DNA from: Owenia fusiformis
Lineage: Eukaryota
Direction: 5' to 3'
NCBI GenBank assembly: GCA_903813345.2
Contig: CAIIXF020000001.1
Location: 22,506,001 to 22,570,000 of the forward strand
Length of the DNA: 64,000 nt
The notes beneath the pieces were generated by a model, which was given only the letters and a program-made list of their open reading frames with translations, was not told where the DNA came from and did not search any database. Shown in pieces: positions 8,684 to 52,743 of the stretch (positions within the stretch are counted from its first letter, which is position 1; each line of letters begins with the position of its first letter). Made by a program: the position numbers and the translations under genes.

Positions 8684-8918
8684 AATACCAGTCCAGTGTC
8701 AAACTCGATTCTGAAACGAAAATGATAACTATAGGGACAGAATAATACTAATTACATGCATTTGATATAAAAAATATTTTTATAAAAATTTATTTAATTT
8801 ATACGTATTTTTGTGCATCATTATAGCTCACTTTTTATCATCAGTGCTGCTCAAATCGTTTATTTCAAACGCTCAAAGTTGAGGATTTAGTGAATTTACA
8901 TTGACCTTCCCAAACAAA

Positions 8919-19500: not shown

Positions 19501-22500
19501 CATGTGTAATGAGAGGAAGAGGGCCATGTTTGTGGCCAACATCTGTGCCTGAAAATTGACAATGGAAGGGTGATATAAGTTGTTTTGTCACATGGCCCGA
19601 ATTGCTGGTAATGAAAAAAGATTCAAAGTTGATTAGTTATTTTTTCATAAAAATAGACTGTTTTAGAAATTGTTGTATTAGGGCGTTTTAGTATTCAAAT
19701 ATTTGAACTCCCAACCATTTCAGCAATTTTAAGAATTATATATTGGCAAAGTTTTTGAAACTTTCCATGAGGCCTTTAACTTTCCCAAGCATCTATGTTC
19801 ACTCTTTGTTGAATCGAATACTAATGGGAGTTCCTCACCATCGTAGGCATCCCCATATGCAATGAAGAGATGCCAGGTGTCACTGAGGAGGTCAAAGGTC
19901 ACCTCTGTGGTGGTAGCAGGGGTCGTCTTATCGTTACTTATCCATGTGACATTCATACTACGGGGTCTCCTGAATCTACATGTCACATGATCTCTTTGCT
20001 TTTCTGCCTCAGCATTTGTGATTCCAGTCTGAAATATTGTAGTTTGATATTGCAACCTATCGTGTACCAGATCTGCTGTATGTAATATTTGTCAATACTT
20101 TGACTTACTTATAAGTTTTATGGTTTTCAGAGGTTTTGTTGTCTGCTGATGGGTCAATAAATCACGTTTTCTACATTTATCAGGGGTGGGTTCAAGAACT
20201 CCTAATCCCATATAATCCAACATTGAAAAGACGGGGTCCGCGCATTTTACCGAAACCCATTATAGTGATAAAGGAATTGACAAATATTTGAAAATTACCT
20301 CCTGTTCAAGTTCCAATCATTTTTATAGATTATATTGATAGATTTAATGTCACTGAATATGGTATTGCTTGTTGAGGATCACACAACATTACCGTTTATC
20401 ATTTATTTGAGATTTAAGCAGGGGTCCATTTTTTAAAGAAATAATCGTTTTAAAAGATTTCTTGTGAATAGATAATAAATAAGTACAAAAAGTATGAATT
20501 ATTATATATCAAGAGCATAATGTAAAATTTCAACTGAAAAATTAGATCAAAATGGAATCCATGTTCATAGTGGGGGGTATAACTCATCAAACACTGGATA
20601 ATTTTTTTAAAGCTAATTGTTACAGCCTAATGTTTTTAATTTGCTTTTTTAAGTTAGGATTATAGCATTGACCATTTATGAATTTTTGAGCACCATACAA
20701 AGTTACAGAACTTCATTTATGAACGATTTCAGCAGGGGTGTATTTTACAAATATTAAATATTTTTCCGGATAGTTCTTAGATGAAAAGCTAGTACATTGT
20801 TACAATTAAATTACATCATTGAGGTGTATAAATCATGAAAACAGGTTTCATCCTGATGTCTTCAACCTAATTCGTATAACGCCATGTCACAAATGGGGGG
20901 AGGGGACATTTACCTCCACTTGGGGATCTTTATTACTTTTATGACTTCAATATTACAGTTATGTCGGTATCATTATAAACAGGCATTAAATAAGTGTAGA
21001 CTATTATAAATGGGTTGACAGCAAGAAGATTTATACAATTTAAACTGGAAAATGAGATAACAATGGGCTCTAAAATCACAATGATTGGTGTAACTAATCA
21101 CATTTTTAATTTATAAGCTTAGTATCATGTCCTAACAATTTAAATTAATCTTAAATAGTTATCCCATTGAACGAAGTTCGGAGGGATATAGGGAACGGGC
21201 CTCAGTCCGTCCGTCCGTCCATTCGGGCAATAACTCAAATACCGTTGGCCCGATTTTGACCATATTTTTACACATATACCCTATGGGGGTAGAAGTTCTC
21301 CTCGAAAGCCGATTTTCAAAATGGCTGCTCATTTAAAAATAGCGGCCATTTTAGTGCCGATTTTACAGTAATTTAGATGCAATATGTAAAACTGTAATAG
21401 CAATATCTTTTAAATGAAAAAAAATATATAGGACATTAATAAAGCTAATGTAGATATTAAAGAAGCACATGGCAGCCATCTTGAAAAATGATGGCCTTTA
21501 CTTGTTATTTTACGATTTTTGCTGTAACTCGAAAAGTAGTGGAGTAATTTCGTTCATATTTGGTATATGAATACTATAAGCATGGCACACTGTCTAGTGA
21601 TACTTTTGGTAGAAGGCGGCCATTTTAAACATAGCCGCCATTTTAACGTATTTTACTATAACTCGAAAAGTTGTGGAGCGATTTTGATCATTTCTGGTAT
21701 GTGAATACTGTTAGGCGGTAAACACGATACAAAAATATGCCATATTCCTCAATGAATATGGCATATTCACTTGCGGTGTATGACAGATTCACCTGCGGTA
21801 TATGTAATACACACTAACCAATGAGTATGTGATACGGAAGTACGCAATTGTCAATTGCATCAATTGAACGAACAGGTAAAACTTTATAAATTATTATAAT
21901 GATTACTGAATCAACAGTACAGTTCATCCAATATATCAACGTATGCAGAAGTATCACTCACCAATCTCACGTCATAAACTTACCCAATCAATCCAGGATT
22001 CATATATTAGTACTCGACGCACTAACAATATTGGTAATCCAGCGTAGTTTTACATTTAGAGTCGATTCTCGCAACCAATCAAACCGAGTCTTTCTGTATC
22101 ACGTTTTCACCTGCGGAATATGTCATATTCACCTGCTGTATATGGCATATTCTGCAAGTGAGTATGACAAATTCTGCAGGTGAGTATCGGGTATTCACTG
22201 AAACCAATATATCGCATATTCACTGCAGAATATCGCATACTCACCTGCGGAATATGTCATATACCGCAGGTGAGTATGGCATATTCACCCGTATCACAAA
22301 TACCGCGCAACCATGAATGTATGCCATATTCCGCGTAAAAAATACCATAAACATGGCACACTGAATTTTTTGAATATCTTAAAGTGGTTCAGATTTTCAT
22401 TTATTGAAGATTTAATTCAAGACTAATTCAAAAAGATGAATATTTTTGTGGATGGTTCTCGGATCAATTACTATTATTACCACCTTGCGGGGCATGTTTT

Positions 22501-25500
22501 AGGGGTATTAGTGCTAGTTTAGGTGGCATTTATGTTACTATATCGACCTGAGCAATAATTCTTATAACGTCATTTCTGCGAGCAATATTAAACAAAAACT
22601 GGATGATCAGTAGCTGGATATGGCAGAATACCCATTCGAGAAAAAAATATTGGGCGAGACGGTATTAATTAATTTCAATAGAAAGTTTGGGTTCTAGCAT
22701 TGCGTCATGGGACAGTCTATTTTCTACTAAATAAAATAATCAAGGTAAACGCTTTTCTATTACTAAAGTTATTTGCTTGTAGAGATGCTTGTAGAGCCCG
22801 TATCGCAAAAATCATATATCCTTTTACCCCACACCATATCATATGCTTTATTGATGTTAAAATCCATTTTTATAAATAGTGGGAATAAATTCCTAACTCA
22901 TCTTAGATTATGATTTAAATGCAATATTATATGCGATCAAATGCTTTTTCCAAGGTTTTAAAATGTAAACAGTGCTCAGTTTCAGTGCTCAACGGGTGAA
23001 AACGTATGTAGGAATATAGGCAGAAACAATTTGCAGATCAACGAAAACAAGATTGCGTTCAAAGAAAGTGAACTAAATAGAACCATTATTTTTAATCATG
23101 TTGAAAGCAAAATATAGTCAGACAGAAGATATTATTTTCAATTAAACAGATAAAATCAATATATCATGCTAATGACCTTTCCAAAAGCAGATTCATAAGT
23201 GGAAAATTCGTTGTTAACTTCAAAAGTATCAATATCTAATATTTTTCATTGGACCTCTGTTAAACCCCTCAATGATAAGTAAACGGTAATGTTGACAGGT
23301 CCTCAACGGGTGAAAAGGTATGTAGGAATTTATGTTTTATTATTTGAACATATCATTTAACAATTGGCAGATCAACGAAAAACAAGATGATGTTAAAAGA
23401 AAGTGAACTAAATGAAACCATTATTTTTTATCATTTTGAATGCAAAATATAGTCAAACAGACTATCTAAGTTTCAATTAAACAGATAAAATCAATATGGC
23501 ATACTAATATTAATAACCTTTCAAAAAAGACTTCAAAAATATCAAAATCTAATATCTTTTATATTTTTCTGTGAATCCCTGTTAACCCCACAATTATTAA
23601 TAAATAAGTTTATTGGTAACATCTAATGTGCATCGAGATAAAATCAACATGTCATACTAGTAAACTTTCTAAAAGCCGATTAATGACTAGATAATCTGTT
23701 GTAAACTTCAAAACTATCAAAATCTAATATTTTTTGTTGACCCCTCCCTGTTAAACCCCTCAATGATAAATAAACGGTAAAGTCCTCAACAGGTGAAAAT
23801 GTATCATTTACACATATCATATCAATTGGCGGATCAACAAAAACAAGATGATGTTAAAAGAAAGTGAACAAAAGGGAACAATTATTTCTCATCATTTTGA
23901 ATGCAAAATATAATCAGACAGTCGATCTTATTTTCAATTAAACAGATAAAATCAAGATAAAATCAATAGGTTATGCTTATAACCTTGTCAAAAACCGATT
24001 CATGAGTAGATAATCCTTTGTAAACTTCAAAAGTACCAAAATCTAATATTTTATTTTTTGTGGACCCCGGTCAAACCCCTCAATAATAAGTAAATGGTAA
24101 TGTTGACAAGTGCTCAACATGTGAAAACGTATGTAGGAATATATGTCTTATCATTTAAACATATCAAAACAATAGGCGGATCAACAAAAAACAAGATGAT
24201 GTTAAAAGAAAGTGAACTAAATGGAACAATTAATTTTAATCATTTTAAATGCAAAATATAGCCAGACATGTGATCTTATTTTCAATTAAACAGATAAAAT
24301 CAATATGTCATGCTAATAACCTTCCCAAAAACCAATTCATAAGTAGATAATCTGTTGTAAACTTCAAAAATATCAAAGTCTAATATTTTTTATTTTTTGT
24401 GGACCCTTGTTAAACCCCTCAATAATAAGTAAATGGTAATGTTGACAAGTGCTCAACAAGTGAAAATGTATGCAGGAATATGTGTTTTATCATTTAAACT
24501 CATCAAAACGATTGGAGGATGAACAGGAGGAAACAGCTTAATTAAGGCTTATCTGAGAAATTCCATTATCACTATTATACCGACGCGCATTGTACCGAAA
24601 GGCGTTATACATTACTGAATGCCATAATCACTGTTCCACAACTAGTTACTTCCTGAAAGAATGTGGTACGGCCCTGCTCAACGCATTCCCAAAAAAGTCT
24701 GATTCTGTAGAATTAACCCTTTCCAAATGGAAAAACAGATGGCATGGTATCATGGGTATAGGTAGGGCTAAATAACATGACAAGAGTCATTTAATTTATT
24801 AATTTAATAAGTAATTCCATTTGAATCAACTTAAAACATATAAGAATGTAACTATATGATATTATTGACATATGGATTGTGATTTCACATTAAAATTGTG
24901 ATCCTTGTAAAAGAAAATGGACTTTTGAAGGTTTTCCAACATTGTGTCAATGGGGATTTAGCCTGACCATTTTTAGAAAACTTGAAAATCTCTAGAATTT
25001 GAATAAAGGTAAATAACAGTGCAAAAACTAAGTTGTATTGATAGAAAATTACGTACAGAATTCAAATAGAAGAAAATGTTAGTCTTTAGTGGTTAAAAAT
25101 GCAGATCTCCTAAAATTTCATTAAAACGAGACCTTAACGAGATTAAGCTATATGGAAAAGCCACTATTAGATAGATGCCTTCACTAGGCTATTCTCTGTA
25201 CTTGTGTCCATGCCTCATTTTGAGTAGCGAGTGTAAATTCTTTTCGGAAACATGATTATGTTTTCCCTGTAATATGAATTGGAGATATCTGACAAAATAT
25301 GGATAGCCTAAAATATAAATTTTGTGTTTTTTAACATGCGGAAATATCTTGAACACTTTGAAACTGAAGTACAGTTCCTTAATAGGACGTTCAGTTTTCT
25401 TGTTTTTGTTCTACACAACACTTGTGTTTAATAGCCACGCGTAATTATTAATAAGCGTAATCAGATTATTTCAAGCGTCGAAATAGCTTATTTTCCTCGA

Positions 25501-28500
25501 CGTATCCACAAACCTATTCACTTACCGTTATATTGAGCGATCTAGATGCGTCAATAATAATTGTTTTTACTCATCGGCTTTAGTGGCCCGCAATACCTTT
25601 TATTTCATTCTTACTCACTTACTCATCGGCTTTAGTGGCCCGCGATACCTTTTATTTCATTCATTTGTGAGACGCAATTGATATATTGGCAACAAATCAA
25701 ATGTTCTAAATGATTCTTCTTCATTTTGGAGTGTTTTCCTACCCGATATTCTTAAATATGTGTCTTAAATATTATACTTTACATTGATCACGATTCTTGT
25801 ACTTTCTGTCTTTACGACTCTCGTTCACGTTTGCACGAGTTGTTGATTGAATTGCCTTGATCGTTGGTCGAACTTTAATTCCAACTAAATCCGATTAATC
25901 AATTAAGAAATGTAATATCATGTTCATCCAAGCAAATAATTGTAACAACTACATTATTTTTTAGCAGTTTTGACACCTAAGCAGGGTAGTCTAGTGGCGT
26001 AGACTGAGGCTACTATGCGGTTGAACGTCGTGGGATACGGAGGTCCCGCGTTCGAGCCCCAGGTACGGAGTTGTTGATCATTGTCACTACGGACACCCGG
26101 TCCGAAGGTCCAACCGTTTACCGGCCCTTGGCATGGGTTGGTTCTCTGGCCGCTCTTGCCTAAGACAGATTGTGAGACTGTGGTTGGTTCCTCCACTAAC
26201 GTGCTTTAGTAAACTCCGGGAGTCATATAGTATGGTAGCGGGCCCCCACCAAGGGCAGTAGTGGAACGACGCGAATCGGTCCCAGTATGGTTGCCTTGCA
26301 ACTGAAGAGACTCGAGGAAATCATGCCATTCGCAATGACCCAGAAAAGACTTTTGCTTCTTGATTTGACGTTTAATTCATGTATTTACATACTTTATTCA
26401 TATTACTTTCCAGGCATATGTTGGTTTTCGGCACAATGCGCGTCGGTATAATGGGTTTCGGTTTAATACGCGTCGGTATATTGAGGTGATCCCGAAAACA
26501 CAATAATTTTCAATTGAATAATGCTTGCTACATTTCTAAAAGATGTTGGTTATTTATATTTATTAGAAATATGGTCCATTCTGTATATAAAATAAGAAAA
26601 CCACTTACTATTCTGTGTTTGTCATTTGTCTTGGGATTGGGTGGATTGTACCCAAGCTGTACTGTTGATAGCCAAGGTGCAGTTAGACAGGTCAGAGTGG
26701 AGTCGTTACCCTAGAAACACAAATAGTAAACAGTAAAGGTTAACTCTGGAAACTTGTTCAACTAAATAAGTTGGAGTCGTTACAGAAGAAACACAATCAG
26801 TAAAGGATAACTCTGTAAACATGTTCAACTAAATAAGTTGAAGTTGTTACCCTGGAAGCACAATCAGTAAAGGATAACTATGTAAACATGTTCAACTAAA
26901 TAAGTTGAAGTTGTTATCCTGGAAGCACAATCAGTAAAGGTTAACTATGTAAACATGTTCAACTAAATAAGTTGAAATTGTTACCCTGGAAACACAATCA
27001 GTAAAGGTTAACTCTATAAATACGATCTACTAGGCCAAGTAAGGTCGTAAGTAGGTTACCCTAGAAACACAATGAGTAAAGGAAACTCTGGAAACGTGTT
27101 CACTCGATAGAGATTAAGCAGTTGACCTAGATACATAAAGAGTAACAGTAAAGGTTCACAGGGTAACTCAAGTAAAAATTTAGAGGTTGTTTTAACAAAA
27201 AGAAAACTTTACATGTGAAGATGTTTCTTATATACAGGCTTTAATATGTGGTCCAAAAAGGGACTTGCAGTTACATTATTTCAATTTGCTTTAACCTACC
27301 ATTCTAACATCATCACTAAAGGCCAATGACATGAAATGATCAGCTTTTCCTTTCATTTCAAAATCAATGAAGTCTCCGTCAACTTTGTAAGTGACCAAAA
27401 AGTCACAATCGTAGAAGCAATAACGAGGTGACATTAAACAGCCTTTCGTTTCGCCACAACCATCTGCTGTGATTACTGCACTCAAATTAGGTTTCACCTA
27501 AAACATCAAAATTAGCATAATAATTGTCAAATTCAAAATAAAAAGGAAAACATTTAAAAAAATATAGGGAATGTGTACTTTCAGAAGAAGTTTTTTCCAT
27601 GAAGAATTATATTTTATATTAATAACAAATGTTAGAAAGACAAGCTATTACCTCTCCCAGAAACTCCGCAGAGGCATCTGGTACCATTGCCTTGACAACA
27701 GAACTCTTGACATCATACCAGAAGACAGCATATGATTGGATGAATGTTGCACTGAAAAAATGGCCTGATAAAGCAAATGACTGAAACACATGCATGCATT
27801 AAAATTAGAAATCCCATCGGCTTTATATTATGGAGTGTCCCCAAATATCTGTTCATTGGTATAATATTGCTAGTCTGGCCCATACCCAAGAGTGGATGGG
27901 TGACTCCTCTGTAAAAGAAATGGATGTTGTGTAAAATCTGATGAGAAACGTCTGAGATTTCTCCTTACCTGAAATGGATATCTCCAACAGATGTAGCAGG
28001 TGCTTTCCAGGTGAATGTTAGGTTATATTTTGGTTCATTGTTCATATGGGTTAGGCAGTTCTGAAAATATGAAGTAGGCTCTGTCATCTTACTCAAATCT
28101 ACATGTCATAGGCACAAATATTCAGATCGATACTAGGCATTTTTGACTCTTATCCACAAACCGAGATGGATGTACACTCCCATCCATAAGTGTGCCAACC
28201 ACCCAACTATTGTAATAAGGATAAACATTGAGATTCATTATTAACTTTTCAGTTGTTCAACTTATGGAGGGGAGTGTGATTTCATAGTATTGCGTTATGA
28301 TTTAATTTTGCATCACTTTGCTCCATATCAGATACTCATATTTTCCTACTCACTGTAACTCTTCACATATGTAAGTAATAATGAGCCATTTAGATTAAAT
28401 AAAAAGCAATTGGTTGAGTCTTAAATAAAGATTGGTGGAACTCTTTCTTGGCCTTAAGACAAACAAAGGAATAGATACAGAAAAAACAATGAATAGACAA

Positions 28501-31500
28501 TGAATCAAATAGAAAAAAACAAATGAATAGACAACCAAACAGAAATCAATCAGAAAAAAACAAATGAATAGACAATCAAACAGAAATCAATCAGAAAAAA
28601 CAAACGAAGAGACAATCAAACAGCGAAAAAAACAAATGAAACAGCAAATGAATAGACAAACAAACAGAAAAACAAATGAATAGACAATCAAACAGAAAAA
28701 GCAAATGAATAGCTAAACAGAAAAAACAGATGTATATAGTCGCACAAACGAATAGACAAACAAATTAATGGCTAGATAAATAAATAGAAGACAACTGAAT
28801 TGACAAAACAAAGGAAGGAAGACATATGAATGAATACACAAATAGACGAATATGTTAGGGATATGTTGTGTAGAATCCCGAAAGTATTATATAATATTTC
28901 ACAGCGCTGAAAGCCCAGATTTTATCCTGTGTTCATTTATATTCATAAACAGATAAACAATGTTCCCAATTTCAGTGGATCAACAAGCATCTTCTGCGAT
29001 CAATTATTAGGCAAGCGTAAAGGCAAGTGCTGCGCAACTCATGCAAAATTTGGAAAGCAACACCTTCAAGGAATGGTTATTCCACATAAGTCCAGGGCTT
29101 AAATCCTGAAATCGAATTAATGTCTACCTTGTTATCTCCTTTGGGATACCATGTCTGCGGTTTAACATCATTTGGGAAGTTCGTGAACCCTCCAACAATC
29201 TCCTCTTTATCCCCATTCACTCTCTGACTTCTGATCTGAAACCCACGGAAGGCTAGTGCATCTTTCGACCACATCGTCACTAAATATACGAGAGAATAAG
29301 GTATGGAAATTAATAACGTAAAATGGACCAAACATTTGGATCCACTATCACCAACAAATACCGGGTCAAATGTGATTTTTGCAGCCGAGGAAGCCAAAGT
29401 AACATTTATAACTTGTATTGTGGGAGATATATGACGGTTTGGGCAGAAGAAGTATACGTGTATGTAGACTGTATTGTTCGTACCAATATTCATTTGAGAC
29501 TGTGACTAGGTATAGAACATTAGTTTAACTCTGGTACCTGTGAGATCTTGGCCAGGGCTATATGACGTAGGAGACACAGTGATGGTGTATGGAGCATCGG
29601 TAGTCTGTCTCTCGGCACCTTTGTGCTTCGGGAAGATGATAGCGCATGATTTGAAAGGTGCGCCAAAAGGGAAAGCCCCACCTAGAAGGAAAATAAATGG
29701 TATAACGAATGGTTTTGATAAAATCTTGAGGAACAATAGACTAAAGATAATAAGTTATTACAATATTTATGCTAATGGACACCCTTCACAAATCAAATGA
29801 CATTTCTGCATCTTGGATATTCAACTACTTAGTATTTATTAATCAGTATGACTTAATCATATTTCAGAAATTAAAATTAGAATTGCAAGGGAAATATCAT
29901 CCTCCGTACGCAGGGCTCCAAAATCCAGAATACCTTCTTTCTTTTCACCGGGGGGGGGGGGGGTACGGATTCTGGACACCTGCTTAGGATGATGGGAAAC
30001 ATCGGCTTCTGGCTTTTGAAAAGATGGTTTCCAACATTTGATGGCATTGTGGGAATCACAGTCTATACTATCCATAAGTTTTAAATAAAGTATTGACCTT
30101 TCCAATGAATGTCCAAGTAAAGGTGTAAGTAACATTTCTTAATGTGAAAACTCTTAGGATCAAACTTTTTGAGGTACATGCACAATACCTATAAATAATG
30201 TACACCTTTACTAAATTATAGCATCTATAAGAACACCACAAATGATTTCTCTTCAAAATTACAGTGTCAATCCGATTACTTATTTCAAGATATCATATAT
30301 TGTATATGTATTAATATTGCAGATACATGGTGTTCGGGAAGCGATGGGAAATGCTGACATTAAATTTACAAAACAATGCTGAGAAGTATGAAACCAAATT
30401 AAAATCTCTGTGATTTATTTATGGTCTTACAAAGGGCCATTATCTCCGGAATGTTTCATTAAAATATTTCACTTTACTTCTCCGGAAGATTTTACCAAAA
30501 TGTGGGAATGTCCAATATAAATCGTTTGTATTACTTCATGAACACCCTGTATAGTATACCCTTCACTGTATCAATGTACTCTTGTATTACTTATCTTTTA
30601 GCGGCATGCTTGTCAATATTAACCATATCTAAGATGAGATAGCAAAATCACACATTTTGTGGACTCTCAGAAATTAGTACAAATAACGATTCATATTTAA
30701 GTTGTAGCACTAACTGACAAAGCAGGAAGAGTCAAATTTGCAAAATTGGTACATTAAATGGAAATAAAATCACATTGTTAGATTTCCTTTTTGGTTTAAA
30801 AATCACCATAAGAAGAGAATTTTAAAATATTCCACACCTTTTGACATGTACAAAATAGAGATTTCAAATCTGTTTACACTGTGTTGGTAAGCTGATAAAG
30901 TATGAATATGAATAAAAATCTCTGATTGTTGCCCTGAAACTATATTTCCATTTTCTGACATCGACATATTGAGGTTAAAATAGGATAATTGGTTTTCGGA
31001 TAATAATCCATTATGAAAGTTATCATGGCCTCTTATTAGTTCCGTTCTAGCTAGAAACAGAAAGTTACAATGAATACCAGAATGATAATTAGAAACATTT
31101 TAAGCAATATTAATATTGTTCTTGTCATATAACTATAGTAAAACCTGTATGTTTTGAACATTTTTTTGCCGAGAAAAACGTTTACTGTTGGTAGGTGTTC
31201 ACTACAGAGAGGTTAATCTATATGGATGTCAATAGAGTATGTGGGGACGAAGGGTGTCCACTAGAGTCTAAGAGAGGTGCTCACTGAGACAGGATTTACT
31301 GTAATCTGCCATAGTGATGTATCGGCAGAATATTGAGACGACTCCATGTACAATTATTAGAAACTTGATGTTAGAATTTGAACCAGTGTTTCAGTTTATT
31401 ATTGTAAAAGTAAAATGCTGACTCATGTTAGAACTACTATACGAGGGGTGATTACAAAGTTGCTTCCTTGATTCCAAGCCCTGAAGTGGCTATGGCAACC

Positions 31501-31929: not shown

Positions 31930-33810
31930 TATTTCAACAGAGAGAATTGAAAGTCATATCTATAATTACTGTACAGCATCTATTTATTTCACCTTATTAC
32001 TGTAAAGCTTTACTCATGATCATGCCTACAGACCCCCCCCCCCAGAATAACCTTGCACTCTGACCCCAGTGTATCCGAATTCATATTTGATTTGCACGAA
32101 ACACTAGATAATCAAATTAACGTTGCATCCCACAAATCATGATCCCAGTGTACATATATTTAATTTGCATAAGATACCAGAAGCTGTCAAAGTAGCTATT
32201 GTCGGTGAGACAACCACGAGTTTCAAATTCTGAATATGACAAAATTATGCTTGTATGAAAAATGTCCTTTTGTTAATATTGATAACGTGCTTATATTAGT
32301 CTCTCAAAAATCAAGAGAGCAAGCCATAAGATTACAAAAGCCCACCAACCTTGAATGAACAATCCAGAGATGAAACACAGAACATGTAGTAAATTCCTCA
32401 TGGCTGTTCAGATGTATAGTGAAGCTCAAAGTATTCGGCACAGCAAAACTTACTTAACTTTCATGATAAACAGGGACTCTCTCAAGGTTGTTTATATCTG
32501 TTTCAGGGATAGAAGTCCATTGCTGAATAGACTGACCTTATCCGTGGGCTGAGATACCATCCAGTTGTCCGAATCTCTCCTAAATGTGTGTGAACCATCT
32601 TGGAAATCGATGATGTTGGTATACTAACTCGGGAATAATAAGTTAAAGAATAATATATGGCAGAAAATATCCCTTGTGTAAATTATATAATAATGAGACA
32701 GTGCTCAAACATGAAGAAATTCAACAAGCATGTCATAAGAAGCTAAGTCAAACGATTAATACACTGTCCCCGATTACTCAAATCTCAGATGTTATTTAAG
32801 TATCAATATTTGACATGGTCCCCTAATCTTAGACAGTATTTGCCAAATGCGAAGGTACAAAAGTGATAAGTGGATAAATTCTAGAGTCTCTAGGAATTTA
32901 TTTTAAGTAGTCTTATATCGTCCTTTCTCACCCACTCTTTATTTTCCGAGATAAAGCGCTCGAGATTCGTAAGATGCATTTGCAGAGTACAATCGATCAA
33001 TCATAGATAGGATGGGTGAGGGTCGTGTACATTTTCTTGTCAAGAAGACCAAAGGGCAACATTAAAAACAACAACAACAAGAAAACTGATTCTAGAACTT
33101 TTGAGACATAGGTAAATATTATGGTATCGTTGTTTGGGTTAGATCTATATGTAGTGTACATAGTCCTGCTAGTAGTTTTCCCTGGACAATGTGTTTCCCT
33201 GACCCTGGCGTTTCACCAAGTCCCTCACTGATGTTTTCCCTGGTCCCTTGTGTTTTCCCTTGCTTAAATCGTTACCGCAGTTAATCCCCATGCCCCTGGT
33301 GCTGAAGATGTTACAAAGAGCAATACATAAATACAAACATATACATATGTATAGCCGAATCTTATGATCGGACAAACGTATTGTCTTAATACACTTTGAG
33401 GACATGGCACATAAATGAAATGATTTACATTCCCAAGATTTTGACGTGGGGATGTTCGATGTGTAGATTAAGAGAAGAAACTAAAAACTCAGTCATAAGC
33501 CTACCAACGAGAACTAACTGAATTGATACATTTTATAAATAAACTTTTCAATCAACGTCGGGAGCTACTTGAAAAAGGAATAAACTAGTTTGTAAGATCG
33601 TTATATTTAAATATTTTTCTTAACAATGCATTTAACTGTATAACTGTATAATTATGTCTTGTAATTGATTTTGTGAGGAAGTCAATTGTTTTGGCTTGAA
33701 ACACAATACAATTTTGAATCTTATATCGATAGAAAGATGGCAGTTTGATTCATATATTCACACATATCTTTATTCTTCAGCATGTCCTGTTTAAATGATT
33801 ACAGCATGAT

Positions 33811-34048
33811 CATAGGCGTAGCCAGGGGGTGCAATCACACCCCCCCCCCTATAACCAATAAATATATAACCATGAGATAGAAGAAAATAGCTTTAAAATG
33901 CTTTTTATTTGCAGCTTCTAGCTTAATTTTGAAGGAAGTTGCATCTGTAAAATTCAAGATAAATCTTAACCCCCTGACTGAAAACCGATTTTTTGGGGCG
34001 ATCGCAACACCCCCCCCCTCCCCTGACTGAAAGCTGGGTACGCCCCTG
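33811..34048. mobile_element. Short hAT-like MITE with poly-C/G tracts
   Basis: Inverted ends (CAT)AGGCGTAGCCAG / CTGGGTACGCCCCTG, with ATGATC on both flanks. Confidence 0.55.
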
Positions 34049-35158
34049 ATGATCCTGATGATGATGTCCCGATTGTGATAATAGAACTTGAATGGTGGAG
34101 GAGTGGTATTAGACACTGTTTCTTTTAACGTTTGACCATGGTTTGGGATACTTGGGGTTTGTTTTCCTTGTAAATGGGGTACTCTACAGATGTTTCATTT
34201 TTCTTGCTGTGTTCTGTAACAATGCTTGGTCCTTTCTCATCTGGAACTTGTGCACATCACGGTGGGAAACAAAGGTATGAAGTTGACAATCAAACTGGTA
34301 AGCGAGTATGACTTGTATGCATACATATTCGTAAAATGGAAAATATTTTAGAGGATTTTTTATGACGTGAACCACAAACGTAAACATTTACGGGTCCCGT
34401 TTACGTACTATGAACTAAGGTGCCTTAAACTGAGCACTTCCGACGTAACGTAAACGTTTTTCTTTTTCTTAGCAGCCTTCGTTTTATGTTCTACTTTAAA
34501 AGTATAAACAATATTACTTTATTGACAAATTGATGAAAGACGTACAGTGAGAGTCAATTAAACATTTGCTTAAAACGTTGAAATTGAATTTATGTTTTAT
34601 CCACCTCATGAATTTGCATTTACTAAATTAGATTTTTAAAATTGCTTGATCATACCCAGGTAAATCCAGGTGAGTTGCAAATCATTAGGACCTAAACAAG
34701 CCATGATCTATATTAATGTATACATTCATACCTCAATATATTTGTCCACGTAATAACGAAACAAACAATTCTATTACGTTATAACCTTCCAATATAAATG
34801 CCGCAGTAAGTAATGGCCATTGATCTGTCTTTAAACCAACTGAAACATTGATTGCCTTTATCAAATTTCAATAAACGGGACATCCTACGTATTAGTAACA
34901 GGTAACATGTAACGTAAATCAGATGGCGAATTAAAATTGGAACTTTTCGCAGAGATCCATGGCAACATTATAGAATACACAAACGATGAATGAATTCATG
35001 TGTGAAACAACATTTTTGATTAAGTTGTATAAGTAAACAATTTAATTTTGCTTCACATATTTTAAAATATTTATACCAGCAAACTATTATAGTGATAATT
35101 TATTTGATTTAATGGCTAGCCCAAATGCATTTTGTTAGAGTGACAATATCAGCGAGAC

Positions 35159-36331
35159 ATGAAACGTTGGAAGACAGTCACGGCGCCAAAGAACTCCGAC
35201 ACCATCAACATATTCCTGGGAGGAAATGTCATGATCGGACGCGGGATCGATCAAATATTCCCTGAATCTTCCGATCCGTACATATTTGAAAAGAATACAC
35301 AAGATGCCAGAGACTATGTGAAACTAGCGATTAAGAAAAATGGAAAATTCTATCTGGAGCACGAAAAGCAAGCGATTGAGTACATCTGGGGATACGCAAT
35401 GAAAACATGGGAAAAGTACAAACCAGATGTTAAACTAATCAACTTGGAGACAACACTAACGACAAGTGACACTATGTGGCCGATGAGACCAACGCAGTTA
35501 AGAGCGCACCCAACAAATGTCAAATCTCTGAAAATTGCGGGGATTGACTGCTGTGGAATAGCGAACGACCATGCTTTAGATTATGGCTATCAGGGTTTAG
35601 ATGAGACTGTCAAGGTACTCAAAGAAGCAGGAATAAAATACACGGGAGCTGGTCGTTGCACAACAGAAGCAAAAGAACCTTGTATATTTGACATAGCAGA
35701 TAAGGGTCGAGTTATTATATTTTCTTTATGTACACACTCTAGTGGTGTACCAAACTATTGGGCAGCTACTACTAGTGGCACCACTGGTTTTGGAGTTAAC
35801 ACTATCAATATTGACATCAACACGACTGACTTCATTAATCTCAAAACACAAATTAAAGAAGTGAAGAAACCCAGGGATGTGATCATTTTGTCTCTTCATT
35901 GGGGAGAAGAATGGAACGCGCAAATTCACCAATCCCTAAGGGAATTTGCACACAGGGCAATAGACGAGGCCGAGGTTGATGCTATTCACGGTCACAGCAC
36001 TCATTTTCCACTAGGGATAGAGGTTTACAGAGAAAAACTGATCCTCTATGGGACCGGGGACCTGATTAATGACACAGAAGGAATGCCGGGTAAATACGAG
36101 GACAGCCAATGTGATTTAGGATTCATGTACTTTGCCAAAGTGAACCTCGACACTGGAAATCTGATCGAGTTGAGGTTGGTTCCATTTAGGATCAAACAAT
36201 TCAGATTGTGTACCCCGAACCCCAGAGATGTTAATCTAGCTGTGAACCCACTTAGAAGGAGATGTAAAGAGTTTGACACTGATGTTATACCAGCCATGGA
36301 TGGGCATGGTTTCTGGTTAGCCTTTAAATAA
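35159..36331 (+). CDS. capA: CapA / PGA_cap family (poly-gamma-glutamate capsule synthesis protein-like) calcineurin-like metallophosphatase, 390 aa, intronless
   Basis: Motifs G(N)VMIGRGIDQI, INLET, ANDHALDYG..GL..T...L..AGI..TGAG, LSLHWG, DAIHGHSTH, IEVY..KLILYGTGD in PGA_cap order. Uninterrupted ORF. An in-frame TGA at 35141 supports ATG 35159 as the start. Confidence 0.93.
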   Translation: MKRWKTVTAPKNSDTINIFLGGNVMIGRGIDQIFPESSDPYIFEKNTQDARDYVKLAIKKNGKFYLEHEKQAIEYIWGYAMKTWEKYKPDVKLINLETTLTTSDTMWPMRPTQLRAHPTNVKSLKIAGIDCCGIANDHALDYGYQGLDETVKVLKEAGIKYTGAGRCTTEAKEPCIFDIADKGRVIIFSLCTHSSGVPNYWAATTSGTTGFGVNTINIDINTTDFINLKTQIKEVKKPRDVIILSLHWGEEWNAQIHQSLREFAHRAIDEAEVDAIHGHSTHFPLGIEVYREKLILYGTGDLINDTEGMPGKYEDSQCDLGFMYFAKVNLDTGNLIELRLVPFRIKQFRLCTPNPRDVNLAVNPLRRRCKEFDTDVIPAMDGHGFWLAFK

Positions 36332-36644
36332 CAAAAAGGTCAATACATCTACTAGTGTAGGAATCCTGTATTGACCTGTTTATTACTTAAAGGCTAACCA
36401 GAAACTTCAAGAAGACGTATTTTTGCAAAAAATGAACGTCTTCTTGAAGTTTTCAAAAATATTTTGAAACATTTTAACTTAAAAAAATCATTAAAAAACA
36501 ATGTATTTTACTTTCAAGAAAAATGAGCCCAAATCGTACGAAACTTTCAAATTACTCGTTGGTTGTTTTGCCGATGGACAATTTTGACATTTTGATCAAT
36601 TTTGATTCGCAACATGCTACTCGGACTCTCCGAACATCAGCAAC

Positions 36645-37082
36645 ATGGTCACGGCGCGGTATCCAAACTGCGTGCATACTATGCACGCTGTTTGAAACAC
36701 TGACAAACTGCGCGCATATCAACATTGCATCATACAAGTTGGAGGCTGTGTTTTCAAATGTCATTTTAAGACATTTATTCTGCATTGTTTTAGAGTGTCA
36801 TACGTCCATTCGGTGGCGATTACTTGATTCTACCATGTAATAGCGAAAGTTATGTCAAGATGAATGTAGGAAAAATCTGAGTGTTGCTTGTAAAATTAGT
36901 CTATCTCCACATTATGGTAGGCCTACTGTCTGATAAAAAAAACTAACCTTGTATTTCCAGTACTTTTCATCCTTTTTGGGAATCGTGTCCTCCTCGTCTG
37001 CCATTTTTAAATAGGCGCGCAGTTTGTCAGTGTTTCAAACAGCGTGCATATTACGCACGCAGTTTGGATATCGCACCGTGAT
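36645..37082. mobile_element. MITE-like element with ~70-bp inverted repeats
   Basis: 36649-36716 (TCACGGCGCGGTATCCAAACTGCGTGC...CAAACTGCGCGC) is the inverse of 37015-37081. Confidence 0.6.
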
Positions 37083-37352
37083 GGTTAGGTTGCGATTTTC
37101 TATTCGATGAAAGTGCAGTTTAAAGTATAATTACTGTAAGGAATAAATGTGACAATAGATGTGGATATCCATACTCACACAACAATGCGTGAACAAGACA
37201 ATATTTCAGAACCATTTTGAAGGTTAAAAATGCAACATGTGTTACAGACGCCGAATCCCAAAATGCACCAAAATGCCAACTCTTAATAACTTGATAAGAC
37301 AACTTAAACAAATCTTCATAACTCTGTTATCCAGTATGTGTTTGGAATCATA

Positions 37353-38418
37353 CGAGGGTTGTCCCATGAGTCTTGAAATTTTTATTCTAATTCATAGAAT
37401 ATTTGAGATACAATGATAAAAATTTAGATTTATTTCTACTATCTCTGTAAGTTTCATAGCATAATAAGATCATTTGGCAATGTTACAGATGATTTAAAAT
37501 GTAATGTTGGGGGTACCCGGGGCAAAAAACAGGATTTAAAATACAAATATGACGTAAAAATTAAGGATTTGGGAACCCCTGGCTCAGCTCAACACGTTGC
37601 CTTTTCTGCTCCTCTGTCAAAATATGTGGAACGAATCTAGAGGCTACCTTTGACATCCCAAGGTCTTTCTTCATCACTATGTGAGCAGTACTCTTACTAA
37701 TATCAAAGTCTAGAGCGATCTTCCTACACTGAGTATAGTTCTCCTTTCTGCACTTATAAGTGTACTCTGCAATATGTGGTATGAGATCGTCACTGGATTT
37801 TGATCTTCCTCTTCTAGGACTGATCATCCTCCAGGCTGGTATCTGTAGTTTTTAACTTCTTCTGCCACCTCCATATTGGAGGTGCACTCGGAGTATACTA
37901 GTACTGTCTATATACTTTTTCCATGGCTGTTCTTGTTTGTGTAGGTGTATGCCCTTAAGAGACGTGGTATTGCACAACTGCACACAAAGATTTAACATCT
38001 GGTGACAAAATCCCTGCCATTTTGATTTTCAAAATGCTGTGGCTTTGTACCAAATTTGAGCAATTGTGCTAGTTTATTATGACATCACAGAGGTATTTCA
38101 TAAGATTTTACCAAGAATACAGTGTTTTTGTCAATCTTGACAGGTAATTCACAATTTAAGATGCATACCATCCTTTAAAATTCTTAATACTCCCATGGCT
38201 GCATTTTACATTTTTACTATATTTCATTACTGCCCCACCCCCTGACTCCCCCGGTTACCATAGCAACCATAATAGTTACTCGAGTTCATAATTTTGTTAT
38301 GAAACTATCACATGTTGAAGGTAATTGATTAATCTTGATACATACCAATTTTCAGCCAAATACATTAAAATCTTTTTGAATTAGAATAAAAATTTCAAGA
38401 CTTATGGGACAACCCTCG
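37353..38418 (-). mobile_element. Internally deleted mariner element (N-terminal HTH relic)
   Basis: TA|CGAGGGTTGTCCCATGAGTCTTGAAATTTTTATTCTAAT...ATTAGAATAAAAATTTCAAGACTTATGGGACAACCCTCG|TA. ORF 37561-37827 contains RRGRS..., KIALDFDISKSTAHIVMKKDLGMSKVASRFVPHILTEEQKRQRV (WVPHEL-type motif). Confidence 0.92.
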
Positions 38419-39879
38419 TATTTGACACATTTGCATCTTGTTCAGTGTTCTTCCATTGAAACAGGTTTCATTTGTCTATTCCAAATGGTCACCATTTTTG
38501 GCAATTCACAAAACATGCTTAAAATGTCGGTCTTGTATTTGGAGGTAAACTTAAACGCACCGGACGTTTTCTGACTATACGCTCTCAGATATCTTATGTA
38601 TCTTATGTAATGGCTCCCATTTCCCTCCATATCTCTTGTTTCAACTCTCTGGTGCTTCTGCAGTTGTTAATATACACATTTTCTACGAAATAGCCCTAAA
38701 GATAAATTCCGGGTGTTCATATTGGGTGATATTGATATGTTTTGGCATTTGGAGCATGTTTTGTGAAATTACGATAAAATCGTGACTATTGGAAATAGAC
38801 CAATGAAACTTTATAAAATGAGAGAATATAAAAAAAGTTCAATTGTACCAAATATGACTTAATAAGAGAGAATCAGAGATAGCGAGCAGGCTAAACAAAA
38901 AATTGTTCCAATTTTAGAATATTTTTGGTTCATCTTTTTGGCTCGCGTCCTTCCTTGTCATGTTTATTTTCTAAAAATCACAAAAGTACATACTTTATTA
39001 CAGGAAAACTAAAGATTTTTACAATAATAATTTTCTATAAGAATGGTTACCATTCTTATTATTTGGGAGAATTTAAACATTTTTCACCCACTTTTGCACT
39101 TTGAATCATTAATAATTACTTCACCAATTTATTACATATTGTGAATCTTTTTGGAGATATTGTATTTGACATTGTAAGGAATGGATTGGTAGGTCAATAA
39201 GACAAGTTGCTTGTAATTTTGTCACCCCCTATAGATCTGATTCTGCCTTTAAATCCCCTTACTGGATAATTAAGTGATTAAGATATGTTTGGGTTACCTT
39301 TTTTGGCTCATCCTGTAGTTTGAAGTATTTGTCATGCATCATGCCCTTCATCTTCCGGATATCGTCGATGTGCAAGATGAACAAACTCACACCGGCCTTA
39401 TAAATTATACATTTGTTACTGGGAACTATCAGAGTTTTTAGTTAATAAATCCACCAGAAGCTTATCAGGCTATGGGTGTTTATTTGACAAAATATTTTAC
39501 TTAAAATTACCATTTGTATTCGTTCAACTTCGCTTCTTAAAAGAGAGCCTCGTCTTCATGTAGTTTCATTATCTGTAAAGAAAAACAACAAAATTTTGGC
39601 TTGAAATATAAATTGACATTGCACTTCCAATACCTTCGATTTTTCTAATCTTTTTTCAAGGTCGGAAATTGATGACAAATCTGAAGAATTTATGAAAATA
39701 GTCGTTCCCACGTAAAACAATGGGAAATGGTTCTCGCAAAAATACAAGTAAAGTAGACAACTGAATTTACTAATTTTATTTTAGGGAAAATTGATATTTT
39801 TCTTCAGGTTCAACAAAGTTATTGGTGTCCAAAGTCAAAATTATTTATCAAGAAACCTGTGGAGGTTTAGGAAATAAAG

Positions 39880-47842: not shown

Positions 47843-48392
47843 ACTCCTATTCGCGATAAGAGTTCAGGTGGTAATTTACATAAATATCTCCCATGATGCA
47901 TCGCTTTGGAAGGGACAAATTTTAATTGGCCCGCGAACGAGTCTATACTCTGAACGTTTCTCAGCTTCTGACCTTCCATCAGCCCTCAAGCATAGTTATA
48001 TGATCCAATCTATTGAATAATCAGATAGATAATCGGAGATTCGAAGTAACATTATTGATATTCTTTCGATCTTCGATGAAGTCTGAGCAATTTGGGAAAT
48101 CAGTGACGTCACTGAAATTGGACGGCATTTTCAACTACAGATTTCTTCGGATTTGGGGATTACAGTTCAAAAAGCCTTGTTATATATCTTAATTACATAC
48201 ATACCTATCACTTCTGCAAATGCAACTCTACATAAATGTTTAATAAAGTCTCAGTGCGGCATTGAAAATAGCACCCCTGTGTAATCCAATGGGAAAGAAC
48301 CCGGATGTAGACGATGTTGTACCGTACACGAGAGCTCTTCAAACGAGAGTTAACTAAACTGAACGAAAACTAAACGTTATCGCGTATTGGTA
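47843..48392. mobile_element. TA-flanked MITE inserted in LINE ORF2
   Basis: Imperfect TIR TACTCCTATTCGCGATAA / TTATCGCGTATTGGTA; the ORF2 frame is interrupted exactly here. Confidence 0.75.
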
Positions 48393-49832: not shown

Positions 49833-50429
49833 TCTAATTAGAATATCGTTGTCATCATTACTGTTATTTGAAAATAATTCAGAAAAATGATTTTTCGAAA
49901 GTCTTCAAGTTTCAAAATTAGACTGTTTTTGAATCGTTTATTGCTTGACTTACATAATTTTCTATATTGTTTGAGTACATGGAAATAGGATTTTCGAGTT
50001 ATTCGTTGTTCGGTGATTTCACCAGTTGTAAACCCAATCGTCTAACGCGCTTATTCAAAACGGAACAAGAAACGTTATACCATGCTTTGTTATTCCTTTT
50101 ATTAGGTTGCGACTTTTTTCTTTTCTTTAGAGATAATGTTGCTGCTGTAATAAGTAAATCATTTAATTTATTCATACTTTCATTTACCCTGTTTTGTGGA
50201 CAGTGCTCAATAAGCTCATCCAATGAGTTTAATTTAGCTGCGATCGGCGCTGTTTGAAGAGTTTCACGAAAGACAGTTGGGGATAAGTTACCCCATTTGA
50301 ATGAATTCGCCTTCGAACTTACATGATTTTTTTTGGTGCAGATAGGATTCTTATAACGATTTTCTACTTTAAGTAACATGGAAATCATGCAATGATCTGA
50401 TAAAGAGCTTAAACTATCATGAACCTTAA

Positions 50430-52200: not shown

Positions 52201-52743
52201 GCTACAACGTGTTTTACAAAGTCTGTCAACGATTTAGTGATATTTAATGAGTTATAACAATGTATAAAGTTCACCATATAATATTTAAAATGATATGTGA
52301 TACTTACAATACAACACGTATATACTACAATACTCTAAGACATTTTATACTATATTATCGTTATGTACTTGTACTAAGACTTAATATAAATGGTATTTCA
52401 TACCCAACACTACATGTACTTTTCAGTAATTAACAAATGGTGTGTTTAGATGGTTAGTTTCACCATCTATCAAACCACTTTCTCTGGCCTTGAAATGGTC
52501 TCTTAGGACCAAACCTTTGTGGGGGAGTGATGTTACATAGTTTCCTAATGCAATCGAGGATGTTTTTACATAAAACTGATGTACCCCTTTCGTTTGGGTG
52601 AACTCCGTCTCTGTATAAAGATGTGTTTGGGGTTCCATTTCTTCCAAGGTTGCTGTTTAGAGAGCATGTAACCTGTCGATCATCGTGATATTTGGCTTGT
52701 AGCTGGGCTGATATGGATGCTGATCTAATGTTCCATAATTCAT

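Follow-up and report, generated by a model that had tools for sequence, protein, structure and literature searches.

How an uninterrupted reading frame of bacterial type came to lie in an animal chromosome, whether by a recent capture from bacteria or as part of an older animal inventory, is the question raised by a CapA-like gene of the annelid Owenia fusiformis. We considered it within a window of 64,000 nt, the whole stretch of DNA that was analysed. An initial annotation of this DNA had put the gene forward as a horizontal-transfer candidate and had referred to a transfer of the related pgsAA into cnidarians. Excerpts of PMC5375639 and PMC3189188 indeed cite the cnidarian transfer as such, and in them PGA_cap/PgsAA appears as a textbook bacterial acquisition by cnidarians that loads the stinging capsules with poly-gamma-glutamate.

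The reading frame and its protein

The ORF listing confirmed an ATG-started frame of 390 aa without interruption, as the initial annotation had described. With an in-frame stop 15 nt 5' of the ATG, the stop-to-stop frame extends over 35144..36331 and is the second longest of the 33 such frames of at least 100 aa in the window, the longest being a LINE reverse transcriptase. The features of the gene itself are as follows.

35159..36331, plus strand: single-exon coding sequence of a PGA_cap/CapA-family protein (P0001) with a calcineurin-like fold, from the ORF listing, Pfam and the AlphaFold2 model
36309..36405, plus strand: long hairpin with 39-nt arms (92% complementary, inverted repeat I3) and a 19-nt loop, which takes in the stop codon and the 7 codons before it
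36490..36495, plus strand: ATTAAA, located by a motif scan 159 nt 3' of the stop, a candidate polyadenylation signal

The hairpin folds as RNA with -51.9 kcal/mol (z -9.66; none of 200 shuffles was as good), and within the window its arm is present at its two places only. Expression of the gene, and with it any use of the ATTAAA motif, is inferred.

The protein P0001 matched the Pfam family PGA_cap (PF09587) with an E value of 1.4e-65 and 221.8 bits (cutoff 27), which is far beyond chance, and the match joins residues 18-305 to positions 2-254 of the 255 in the profile. The assignment to a bacterial-type CapA/PGA_cap family thus stands, and the subfamily motif strings that had been quoted are present at residues 27-78 and 302-325. 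The AlphaFold2 model is confident (mean pLDDT 93.4, pTM 0.92), and a Foldseek search of the PDB with this model retrieved MslH (8gqb, E 3.3e-19) as the top match, followed by YmdB-type phosphatases, 5'-nucleotidases and Mre11. As modelled, P0001 has a calcineurin-like (metallophosphoesterase) fold. Its sequence showed no signal-like or transmembrane segment, the highest 19-residue Kyte-Doolittle mean being 1.03, in agreement with the earlier statement that a signal peptide is lacking; P0001 is a soluble protein of about 44 kDa. The same 390-aa protein is recorded, identical, in NCBI, UniRef and nr. The idea of an upstream coding exon adding a signal peptide was dropped because this annotated protein has the same 390 aa; extension is stopped by an in-frame TGA (35141-35143), after which comes no more than a weak acceptor-like 'cag' at 35150-35152.

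Chromosomal setting

The CapA-like ORF sits in a chromosome-scale contig of 62.2 Mb, and no N letters occur in the 64,000-nt window. Its surroundings comprise the following features.

18107..29754, minus strand: spliced FRRS1-like gene with Reeler, DOMON and cytochrome b561 exon pieces (Pfam)
33403..34203, no strand assigned: high-copy host repeat about 950 nt 5' of the start codon (word depth)
36649..37081, no strand assigned: MITE-like small element bounded by 71-nt terminal inverted repeats (I1, 93% complementary), about 320 nt 3' of the stop
37350..38421, no strand assigned: element of about 1.07 kb bounded by 84-nt terminal inverted repeats (I2)
48354-49904, 51406-52233 and 3454-4338: LINE parts, respectively reverse transcriptase, endonuclease and RNase H (Pfam)

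The Reeler (29506-29754, E 5.7e-4), DOMON (27291-27497, E 1.4e-4) and Cytochrom_B561 (18107-18322, E 1e-3) matches are single-exon fragments below the Pfam whole-protein cutoffs; their order on the minus strand is that of FRRS1. The 5' end of this FRRS1-like gene points toward the CapA-like gene across a gap of about 5.4 kb. Also in the window, an NDUFB6 exon (8916-9176) is 100% identical to the Owenia fusiformis protein. The LINE is split over several reading frames; the initial annotation had described an intact frame amid decayed transposon ORFs. Over the repeat at 33403..34203, the summed word depth of run X1 reached 2,836 to 66,016, compared with about 50-85 in most low-depth neighbour bins, and the remaining three runs likewise peaked there. 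Word depth was also high in bins 36607-37140, over the MITE-like element. Within the element at 37350..38421, contigs were joined on opposite strands at 37393/38391; a short frame in it presumably resembles the N-terminus of a mariner-type transposase, and a Pfam search with the frame at 37561-37827 returned no families. Rfam gave no matches between positions 30 kb and 40 kb of the window.

We further considered whether bacterial contaminant reads could have been joined into the chromosome during assembly. The runs consist of short contigs, no single long read was seen to reach from FRRS1 to the ORF, and among the pieces listed none spans the whole 8 kb, as such an artefact would allow. However, contigs from four of four runs, belonging to four studies, cover the ORF and carry polymorphism at the host level; in X1 the word depths of the ORF contigs (41.9-58.9) resemble those of the unique flanks (38.9-70.4), and X1 record 5 spans the start codon (35026-35234). 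Runs taken as probable RNA extend over intergenic stretches as well, with similar depth, and therefore behave as DNA. Host high-copy repeats lie 320-950 nt away on either side, and the window is free of N. The GC, GC3 and CpG values of the ORF are in line with the host (GC3 0.43 versus 0.37 pooled over neighbouring exon pieces; surrounding DNA 35% GC), and the closest bacterial sequence is only 48% identical. An assembly artefact is thus hardly credible and close to refuted. The CapA-like gene is part of the Owenia fusiformis chromosome and not a contaminant, as the spliced neighbour had initially been taken to indicate.

Selective constraint and the metal site

Among the CDS variants listed, 9 of 16 were synonymous and 7 of 16 non-synonymous, giving a pN/pS of about 0.21 (binomial p 0.002); these variants are the 'best supported' subset, and 109 further ones exist over 8 kb. 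One listed CDS indel, seen in runs X2 and X3, removes 3 nt and leaves the frame intact. Since the listed polymorphisms are mostly synonymous, it is reasonable to call the CapA-like gene 'maintained'. The gene is genuine and taken to be maintained by selection.

The protein departs markedly from its family at conserved positions. Of 80 columns with a conservation of 90% or more, P0001 mismatches 13, compared with a median of 1 and a 95th percentile of 12 over 303 other rows; the paralogue P0327 of Owenia has one mismatch, and the range for Acropora, Lingula-1 and P0327 is 0-2. Around the core the exchanges are D23N, N137D, N251E, H283F, Y306T, K110R and Y114L, while E97, H138, D141, H247 and H282 are retained. 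None of the 303 other rows has N23, F283 or T306, and D137 and E251 are each found in one row. The full near-invariant site of the soluble subfamily (D23, E97, N137, H138, D141, H247, N251, H282 and H283) is therefore incomplete in P0001, with five residues kept and four changed. In the alignment of MslH with P0001, D11 falls on N23, N87 on D137, H88 on H138, D91 on D141, H259 on H247 and H295 on H282, and an excerpt of PMC10406935 gives the MslH variants D11A and N87A as inactive.

These departures around the metal and catalytic site, with the core kept, suggest on sequence grounds that the activity of P0001 is changed. By analogy with MslH, E97, H138/D141, H247 and H282 would be the counterparts of its metal ligands and His/Asp acid-base pair. 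With this core retained and the neighbouring residues exchanged at positions 23, 137, 251, 283, 306, 110 and 114, P0001 is predicted still to bind a divalent metal, and probably a carboxylate-bearing (glutamyl or peptidyl) substrate, with chemistry or specificity that is probably altered relative to the canonical copy. This mechanism is modelled on the family and on MslH as its solved relative.

The same changes could mark a relic on its way to loss, in which the frame has stayed intact while catalysis is gone, leaving a pseudoenzyme or a non-functional protein whose altered invariant sites reflect relaxed constraint. Such a reading would draw on the 13 altered near-invariant columns, which include the counterparts of the two MslH residues with inactive alanine variants, and on the finding that similarity and cluster searches returned no orthologue in other species. 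It is nevertheless improbable. A frame of 390 codons has stayed open in DNA of 35% GC while nearby transposon frames are broken, and both the pN/pS and the in-frame indel speak for constraint. The invariant core is retained and the model folds confidently. The three substitutions closest to the metal site, moreover, exchange charges (D to N, N to D and N to E) instead of just deleting side chains, which would fit remodelling better than decay.

Origin of the gene and comparison with known systems

In database searches, the closest relative of P0001 was at most 48% identical. The top-scoring matches come from metagenomes or bacteria and are 46-48% identical across 93-96% of the length; Pontibacter, Cyclobacteriaceae and Bacteroidales are among the bacteria named, and animal rows reach at most 45%. 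PGA_cap homologues occur in corals (Acropora and Porites), Lingula (two genes), protists, one fungus and Globodera. The named animal homologues are Lingula P0123 and P0329, Acropora P0314, a Porites protein in the cluster of P0307, and P0327, the canonical paralogue of Owenia itself. P0327 lies on another chromosome (a contig of 34,910,993 bp) and shares 151 of 371 residues (41%) with P0001. The 90% cluster of P0001 has a single member.

Two features initially read as signs of transfer do not serve as such. The lack of introns does not discriminate, because the coral relatives are likewise called as full-length single ORFs, in Mb-scale contigs. A rough alien index, proposed as a check, came to about 5.5 (best metagenome match 1.2e-94, Lingula 3.0e-92). 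The thresholds usually applied are 30 or more, well above this value. The bacterial look of a gene and its lack of introns in an animal chromosome thus do not suffice for calling a new transfer.

A careful IQ-TREE analysis (LG+C20 PMSF) of 63 rows placed P0001 as sister to a 23-row animal clade with a support of 72/69, the clade itself having 99/84; most rows of this 'animal' clade are Logan or ENA contigs, and its label rests on the named members. When protists were left out, a second careful tree, with 51 rows, again had P0001 beside the animal clade (80/79). In both trees P0001 is outside the clade as its sister and not nested within, and none of the starred clades includes it. FastTree with 304 rows placed P0001 within a 66-leaf clade (support 0.974), all named members of which are eukaryotes. 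The branch of P0001 is long (1.38-1.64 versus a median of 0.39-0.47) and may have been drawn to the base of a clade or to further long branches of eukaryotes. The initial annotation had held that grouping with a broad, vertically inherited metazoan clade would refute transfer; P0001 does fall beside the animal clade in both careful trees, but with weak support, and trees with a bacterial sister were not rejected. Constraining P0001 to 8 Bacteroidota-like rows in set 1 cost 10.9 log-likelihood units (AU p 0.269), and constraining it to 7 such rows in set 2 gave a likelihood 2.87 units higher than that of the free-search tree (AU p 0.553). The animal-side placement is not secure. A constraint to the paralogue P0327 was 13.0 units worse and likewise not rejected (AU p 0.296).

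Taken together, we propose that P0001 is the soluble PGA_cap/CapA product of a chromosomal, selectively maintained Owenia gene, with an altered site, and likely a fast-evolving second copy in or just outside the animal PGA_cap clade, a reading to which we give about even confidence. The clade would comprise reef corals, the brachiopod Lingula and the canonical Owenia paralogue, with P0001 inside it or branching just outside. The ultimate source of the family would be bacterial, in keeping with the PgsAA transfer described for cnidarians, and the CapA-like gene would belong to an old animal inventory and not be a recent private import. The main rival is an independent capture, in the Owenia lineage, of a soluble CapA gene from a marine bacterium, the Bacteroidota-like ones being closest, followed by host-like composition and fast divergence, which would leave Owenia with two PGA_cap genes of separate origin. 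We consider this a serious possibility, although a doubtful one. The bacterial and metagenome proteins at the top of the match list favour it, as do a quick PMSF tree of the first data set, in which P0001 joins Bacteroidota-like bacteria (SH-aLRT 89), the likelihoods of the constrained trees and the singleton status of P0001. Its nearest ESM Atlas clusters are also bacterial CapA families, which would fit a capture and is in itself no evidence on origin. Against capture stand the two careful free searches and the loop between G62 and W77, which is 16 residues long in P0001. Of 14 animal representatives, 11 (P0327 among them) have a loop of 15 residues, and 236 of the 254 rows presumed to be bacterial have one of 13; all 8 Bacteroidota-like rows are without the long form. 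P0001 also carries 6 of 27 animal-diagnostic residues, a number reached by 10 of 237 presumed bacterial rows (median 2). A source for duplication, P0327, is already in the genome, and the bacterial relatives at no more than 48% identity, together with the host-like GC, GC3 and CpG, imply that any transfer was ancient.

Other measures were uninformative on origin. The share of Bacteroidota-clade-diagnostic residues in P0001 (2/9) equals the animal share, the residue signatures are balanced at 7 versus 7, and the animal profile scored 438.6 bits, where ten bacterial profiles of 14 sequences each averaged 442.0 (435.2-448.2). P0001 is neither strongly nested in a bacterial clade nor far closer to a bacterial relative, as a recent transfer would have it. 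The proposal of horizontal transfer thus stands in so far as the family is bacterial in type and the gene is integrated in the host, and is weakened by the second Owenia gene P0327 and by the coral and Lingula relatives.

A bolder reading, which we regard as rather unlikely, would give the two Owenia genes separate histories, the canonical one shared by inheritance with corals and brachiopods and dating from before the cnidarian-bilaterian split and the window gene either captured independently from marine Bacteroidota-like bacteria or anciently duplicated, its metal site rebuilt by charge swap (D23N, N137D and N251E) into an activity undescribed in animals. If the canonical copy was indeed inherited from before the split, the 'nematocyst' PgsAA gene was not acquired by cnidarians only. 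PGA_cap genes in a brachiopod and an annelid, the latter with two copies of which one shows a rebuilt catalytic centre and signs of purifying selection, suggest that the history of the family in animals is wider and older than the cnidarian story. The sequences further suggest that the family was re-used for something other than nematocysts. Our search found no literature on annelid or brachiopod PGA_cap genes; supplementary tables of genome papers lay outside it, so this is not proof of novelty.

The bacterial soluble CapA proteins, including those of Pontibacter oryzae (P0025) and Cyclobacteriaceae (P0390) and the metagenome proteins, are the best-scoring relatives and agree with P0001 in domain and length. 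They retain D23, N137, N251, H283 and Y306, whereas P0001 is changed at all five. Many bacterial members have an N-terminal hydrophobic segment (P0002, P0121) and some, such as P0126 and P0128, are fused to Mur-ligase/cyanophycin-synthetase-like enzymes; P0001 has neither. The name-giving member, PgsA/CapA of the Bacillus poly-gamma-glutamate synthase PgsBCA, belongs to the same Pfam family; it has a membrane anchor, and its gene neighbours pgsB and pgsC. In contrast to this protein, which is compared here by its known properties, P0001 has no transmembrane segment. P0001 does not fit a Bacillus-type PgsA subunit of PgsBCA, given the missing anchor and a Pfam scan of 18 window frames that returned no Mur-ligase family.

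The only solved relative is MslH, a lasso-peptide C-terminal Trp epimerase (PDB 8GQ9), with Foldseek E values of 3.3e-19 to 1.3e-18, a TM score of about 0.65 and 17-19% identity over the fold. Its His88/Asp91, His259 and His295 are matched by H138/D141, H247 and H282 of P0001, and in both proteins a Phe follows the second catalytic His ('GHGPHF' in MslH, 'GHSTHF' in P0001), whereas the counterparts of D11 and N87 are N and D. Nor does P0001 qualify as an MslH-type peptide epimerase: the MslH equivalog NF038314 was the sole match of P0001 in an NCBIfam search and scored 68.3 bits against a cutoff of 700.

Another animal PGA_cap gene is the nematode 'PolS' (Globodera pallida P0127; G. rostochiensis GROS_g07961), listed in an excerpt of PMC4901422 as a horizontally acquired candidate. 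Globodera P0127 has a C-terminal metallo-beta-lactamase domain and branches in the careful trees among presumed bacterial rows, away from P0001. The animal genes P0314, P0123, P0329 and P0327 form a further group for comparison, and we infer the coral sequences to be the 'PgsAA' of Denker et al. 2008. Like P0001, these proteins are soluble and single-domain, of the same Pfam family and about 370-400 aa long, and are encoded by single ORFs in genomic contigs. At 41-45% identity, P0001 stands outside their clade, with its 13 mismatches at conserved columns against their 0-2 (Acropora, Lingula-1 and P0327), and shares with it the longer G62-W77 loop and C369.

The CapA-like gene and its chromosomal setting

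The CapA-like gene is preceded by an in-frame stop 15 nt upstream of its ATG, and its frame is second only to the LINE reverse transcriptase in length among the 33 stop-to-stop frames of at least 100 aa in the 64-kb window. The product, P0001, matches PGA_cap (PF09587) across the full domain (Pfam; E 1.4e-65, 221.8 bits against a cutoff of 27), confirming the intact 390-aa PGA_cap ORF proposed in the initial annotation, and an identical 390-aa protein is present in NCBI, UniRef and nr. An NCBIfam scan of P0001 returned only the MslH epimerase model, far below threshold (68.3 versus 700). The suggested lack of a signal peptide was borne out as well, since P0001 contains no hydrophobic segment (top 19-residue Kyte-Doolittle mean 1.03).

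Features at and around the CapA-like gene
8883-9227 (about 8.9 kb): NDUFB6 exon
18107-18322, minus strand: FRRS1-like exon, cytochrome b561; weak Pfam match, exon-sized frame
27291-27497, minus strand: FRRS1-like exon, DOMON; weak Pfam match, exon-sized frame
29506-29754, minus strand: FRRS1-like exon, Reeler; weak Pfam match, exon-sized frame
35159-36331, plus strand: CapA-like CDS (P0001); ATG-started frame, 390 codons, uninterrupted
36309-36405: hairpin; 39-nt arms, 19-nt loop, 92% complementary
36649-37081: element with terminal inverted repeats, downstream of the CapA-like ORF
37350-38421: element with terminal inverted repeats, downstream of the CapA-like ORF

The Reeler, DOMON and cytochrome b561 pieces follow the order of FRRS1, in agreement with the spliced FRRS1 neighbour noted earlier; their weak scores are expected because each is a single exon. 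The 5' end of this gene faces the CapA-like ORF, about 5.4 kb away. A LINE elsewhere in the window is fragmented into RT, endonuclease and RNase H. Tandem-repeat-like long frames ('...RPVMTVTML...', 'CHDRDNA...' units; 7513-8222, plus strand) lie just upstream of the NDUFB6 exon, and two similar frames of ~103 aa at 43942-44346 and 59148-59459 ('SPCGCRG.CDCKSMRAQKF...'), 15 kb apart, suggest a dispersed repeat or duplicated element. The GC content of the CapA-like ORF is 42.5% versus 35-36% in its flanks, GC3 is 0.43 versus 0.37 pooled (0.29-0.42) in neighbouring exon pieces, and CpG o/e is 0.69 for the ORF and 0.70 for the window.

It is very unlikely that the ORF stems from a contaminant or a chimeric assembly join; the initial annotation had likewise judged a contaminant contig unlikely. 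We compared contigs over 8 kb in four runs from four studies, out of 14 runs with part of the stretch, and contigs on the ORF were present in all four. In sequencing run X1, word depths of the ORF contigs (41.9-58.9) resembled those of unique-flank contigs (38.9-70.4), and the start codon was bridged by X1 record 5. Word depth reached thousands to 160,000 in the bins at 33.4-34.2 kb, 36.6-37.1 kb and 37.4-39 kb, which are host repeats enclosing the gene on both sides. The full 8 kb was spanned by no piece among those listed for the four runs.

The hairpin takes in the last seven CDS codons, the stop codon and the beginning of the 3' flank, and its RNA fold has an energy of -51.9 kcal/mol (z -9.66). 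In two runs there are contigs that terminate at its left arm or close by, and no repeat family in the window includes it. It may represent a structure at the 3' end, a small foldback element or what is left of a palindromic duplication.

Relatives and phylogenetic placement of P0001

Across 5.8 billion proteins, a word-seeded search gave 796 matches to P0001, the best 120 of them at 41-47% identity, and an exhaustive HMMER search of 1.84 billion representatives gave 17,940 at E <=1e-3 and 291 at <=1e-30, the closest non-self match being 46% identical. P0001 is the sole member of its 90% cluster, and no close donor or orthologue was found in any species sampled by either search. The named eukaryotic relatives comprise the brachiopod Lingula anatina (two genes), Acropora palmata, Porites harrisoni (in a sister cluster), the fungus Calcarisporiella, the nematode Globodera pallida and the protists Willaertia, Nonionella, Vitrella and Petalomonas. 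Owenia fusiformis itself encodes a second PGA_cap protein, P0327 (489 aa), which shares 151 of 371 residues (41%) with P0001; its contig measures 34,910,993 bp and is therefore another chromosome. Two proteins from bacterial metagenomes, P0126 (1295 aa) and P0128 (760 aa), carry a PGA_cap domain of 39-41% identity behind Mur_ligase_M/C domains, P0126 with an additional Cyanophycin_syn N-terminal domain; these fusions tie the soluble CapA subfamily to amide-bond ligases that build amino-acid polymers. The G. pallida protein (P0127, 589 aa) bears a metallo-beta-lactamase domain at its C-terminal end (Pfam E 1.5e-11) and lies among presumed bacterial rows in the careful trees, away from other animal genes. 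The second Lingula protein (P0329, 461 aa) has diverged too, differing at 10 of the 80 conserved columns, and its C-terminal hydrophobic tail resembles, by eye, a membrane anchor.

A FastTree of 304 rows put P0001 next to the animal clade, within a group of 66 leaves (support 0.974) in which every named member is a eukaryote. A careful search of 63 rows (set 1, LG+C20 PMSF) placed it as sister to a 23-row animal clade (72/69; the clade itself 99/84). A careful tree of set 2, which has 51 rows, no protists and a different choice of bacteria, again set it beside the animal clade (80/79). These free trees speak against a separate bacterial capture of the gene, a possible reading that we regard with some doubt. 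In its favour, the quick tree of set 1 united P0001 with Bacteroidota-like bacteria (SH-aLRT 89). The careful search of set 1 had a better likelihood than this quick tree (lnL -27249.1 versus -27296.5). Holding P0001 with the Bacteroidota-like rows was not rejected in set 1, where it cost 10.9 lnL units (AU p 0.269); in set 2 the constrained tree exceeded the free tree by 2.87 lnL units (AU p 0.553). Grouping with the paralogue P0327 was not rejected either (delta lnL 13.0, AU p 0.296), and the P0001 branch is 3-4 times the median length.

Outside the trees, the loop from G62 to W77 counts 16 residues in P0001. Of 14 animal representatives, 11 have a loop of 15; of 254 presumed bacterial rows, 236 have one of 13, and all eight Bacteroidota-like rows are among these. 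P0001 carries 6 of 27 animal-diagnostic residues, against a bacterial median of 2, and at least six occur in 10 of 237 presumed bacterial rows. These two features mildly favour an animal placement. Profile scores (animal 438.6, bacterial ~442), two-way residue signatures (7 versus 7) and Bacteroidota-diagnostic residues (2 of 9) are neutral on origin. Taken together, we see about an even chance that P0001 is old and fast-evolving and belongs to the animal PGA_cap clade or is its sister. The horizontal-transfer reading of the initial annotation is partly supported: the gene is of a bacterial-type family and integrated in the host. The existence of animal relatives and, weakly, the careful trees count against a new bacterial import.

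The predicted active site and signs of constraint

The AlphaFold2 model of P0001 (80-sequence alignment; mean pLDDT 93.4, pTM 0.92) predicts a calcineurin-like fold. Foldseek ranked four MslH entries closest among solved structures (E 3.3e-19 to 1.3e-18); YmdB-type phosphatases, 5'-nucleotidases and Mre11 came next. MslH is the one solved relative. To our knowledge, no eukaryotic PGA_cap member has a known activity. In MslH, as the consulted portion of PMC10406935 describes it, a single Ca(II) is held by Glu44, Asn87, His259 and His261, and there are two His/Asp pairs, His88/Asp91 and His295/Asp11; epimerase activity is absent in D11A, E44A, N87A, H88A, D91A and H295N and diminished in H259A and H261A.

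Correspondence of MslH and P0001 residues in HMMER alignments
MslH D11: P0001 N23
MslH N87: P0001 D137
MslH H88: P0001 H138
MslH D91: P0001 D141
MslH H259: P0001 H247
MslH H295: P0001 H282

MslH E44 probably corresponds to E97 of P0001, judging from the invariant NLET motif. The 303 other rows show no variation at E97, H138 and D141 and almost none at H247 and H282, and P0001 retains all five. It mismatches 13 of the 80 columns with conservation of 90% or more, against a median of 1 and a 95th percentile of 12 in those rows (P0327 1, Acropora 0, Lingula-1 2). The changes include D23N, K110R, Y114L, N137D, N251E, H283F and Y306T; N23, F283 and T306 occur in P0001 alone among the 304 rows.

The three changes closest to the metal swap charge and do not delete the side chain, and phenylalanine at the H283 position is common to MslH and P0001. 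Among the listed variants inside the CDS, 9 of 16 are synonymous and 7 non-synonymous, giving a pN/pS of 0.21 (binomial p 0.002; 249 synonymous and 921 non-synonymous sites). This synonymous excess is indicative of constraint, not final evidence, because the list is the best-supported subset, with 109 more variants across the 8 kb. The presumed RNA runs extend over intergenic DNA as well and served here for polymorphism, not for expression. The sole listed CDS indel is an in-frame 3-nt deletion at 35766 (runs X2 and X3), which takes one codon out of a stretch of Thr codons, in a loop where P0001 exceeds its aligned relatives by three residues. Given the charge swaps, the phenylalanine shared with MslH and the synonymous excess, the active site looks rebuilt rather than decaying.

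Comparison with known PGA_cap genes

The original paper on cnidarian PgsAA is reportedly that of Denker et al. 2008. The consulted parts of three sources (PMC5375639; PMC3189188; bioRxiv 10.64898/2026.08.23.746573) describe this protein as being of bacterial origin and supplying nematocyst poly-gamma-glutamate, and the first two state the transfer that the initial annotation had mentioned. A PGA_cap gene of Globodera rostochiensis is among the transfer candidates listed in the portion of PMC4901422 consulted. We found no literature on PGA_cap genes in annelids or brachiopods, lists of which may be contained in supplementary files. We file the P0001 gene with the animal PGA_cap genes, whose type is ultimately bacterial; it stands out as a second, highly divergent copy within one annelid and for its apparently remodelled catalytic centre.
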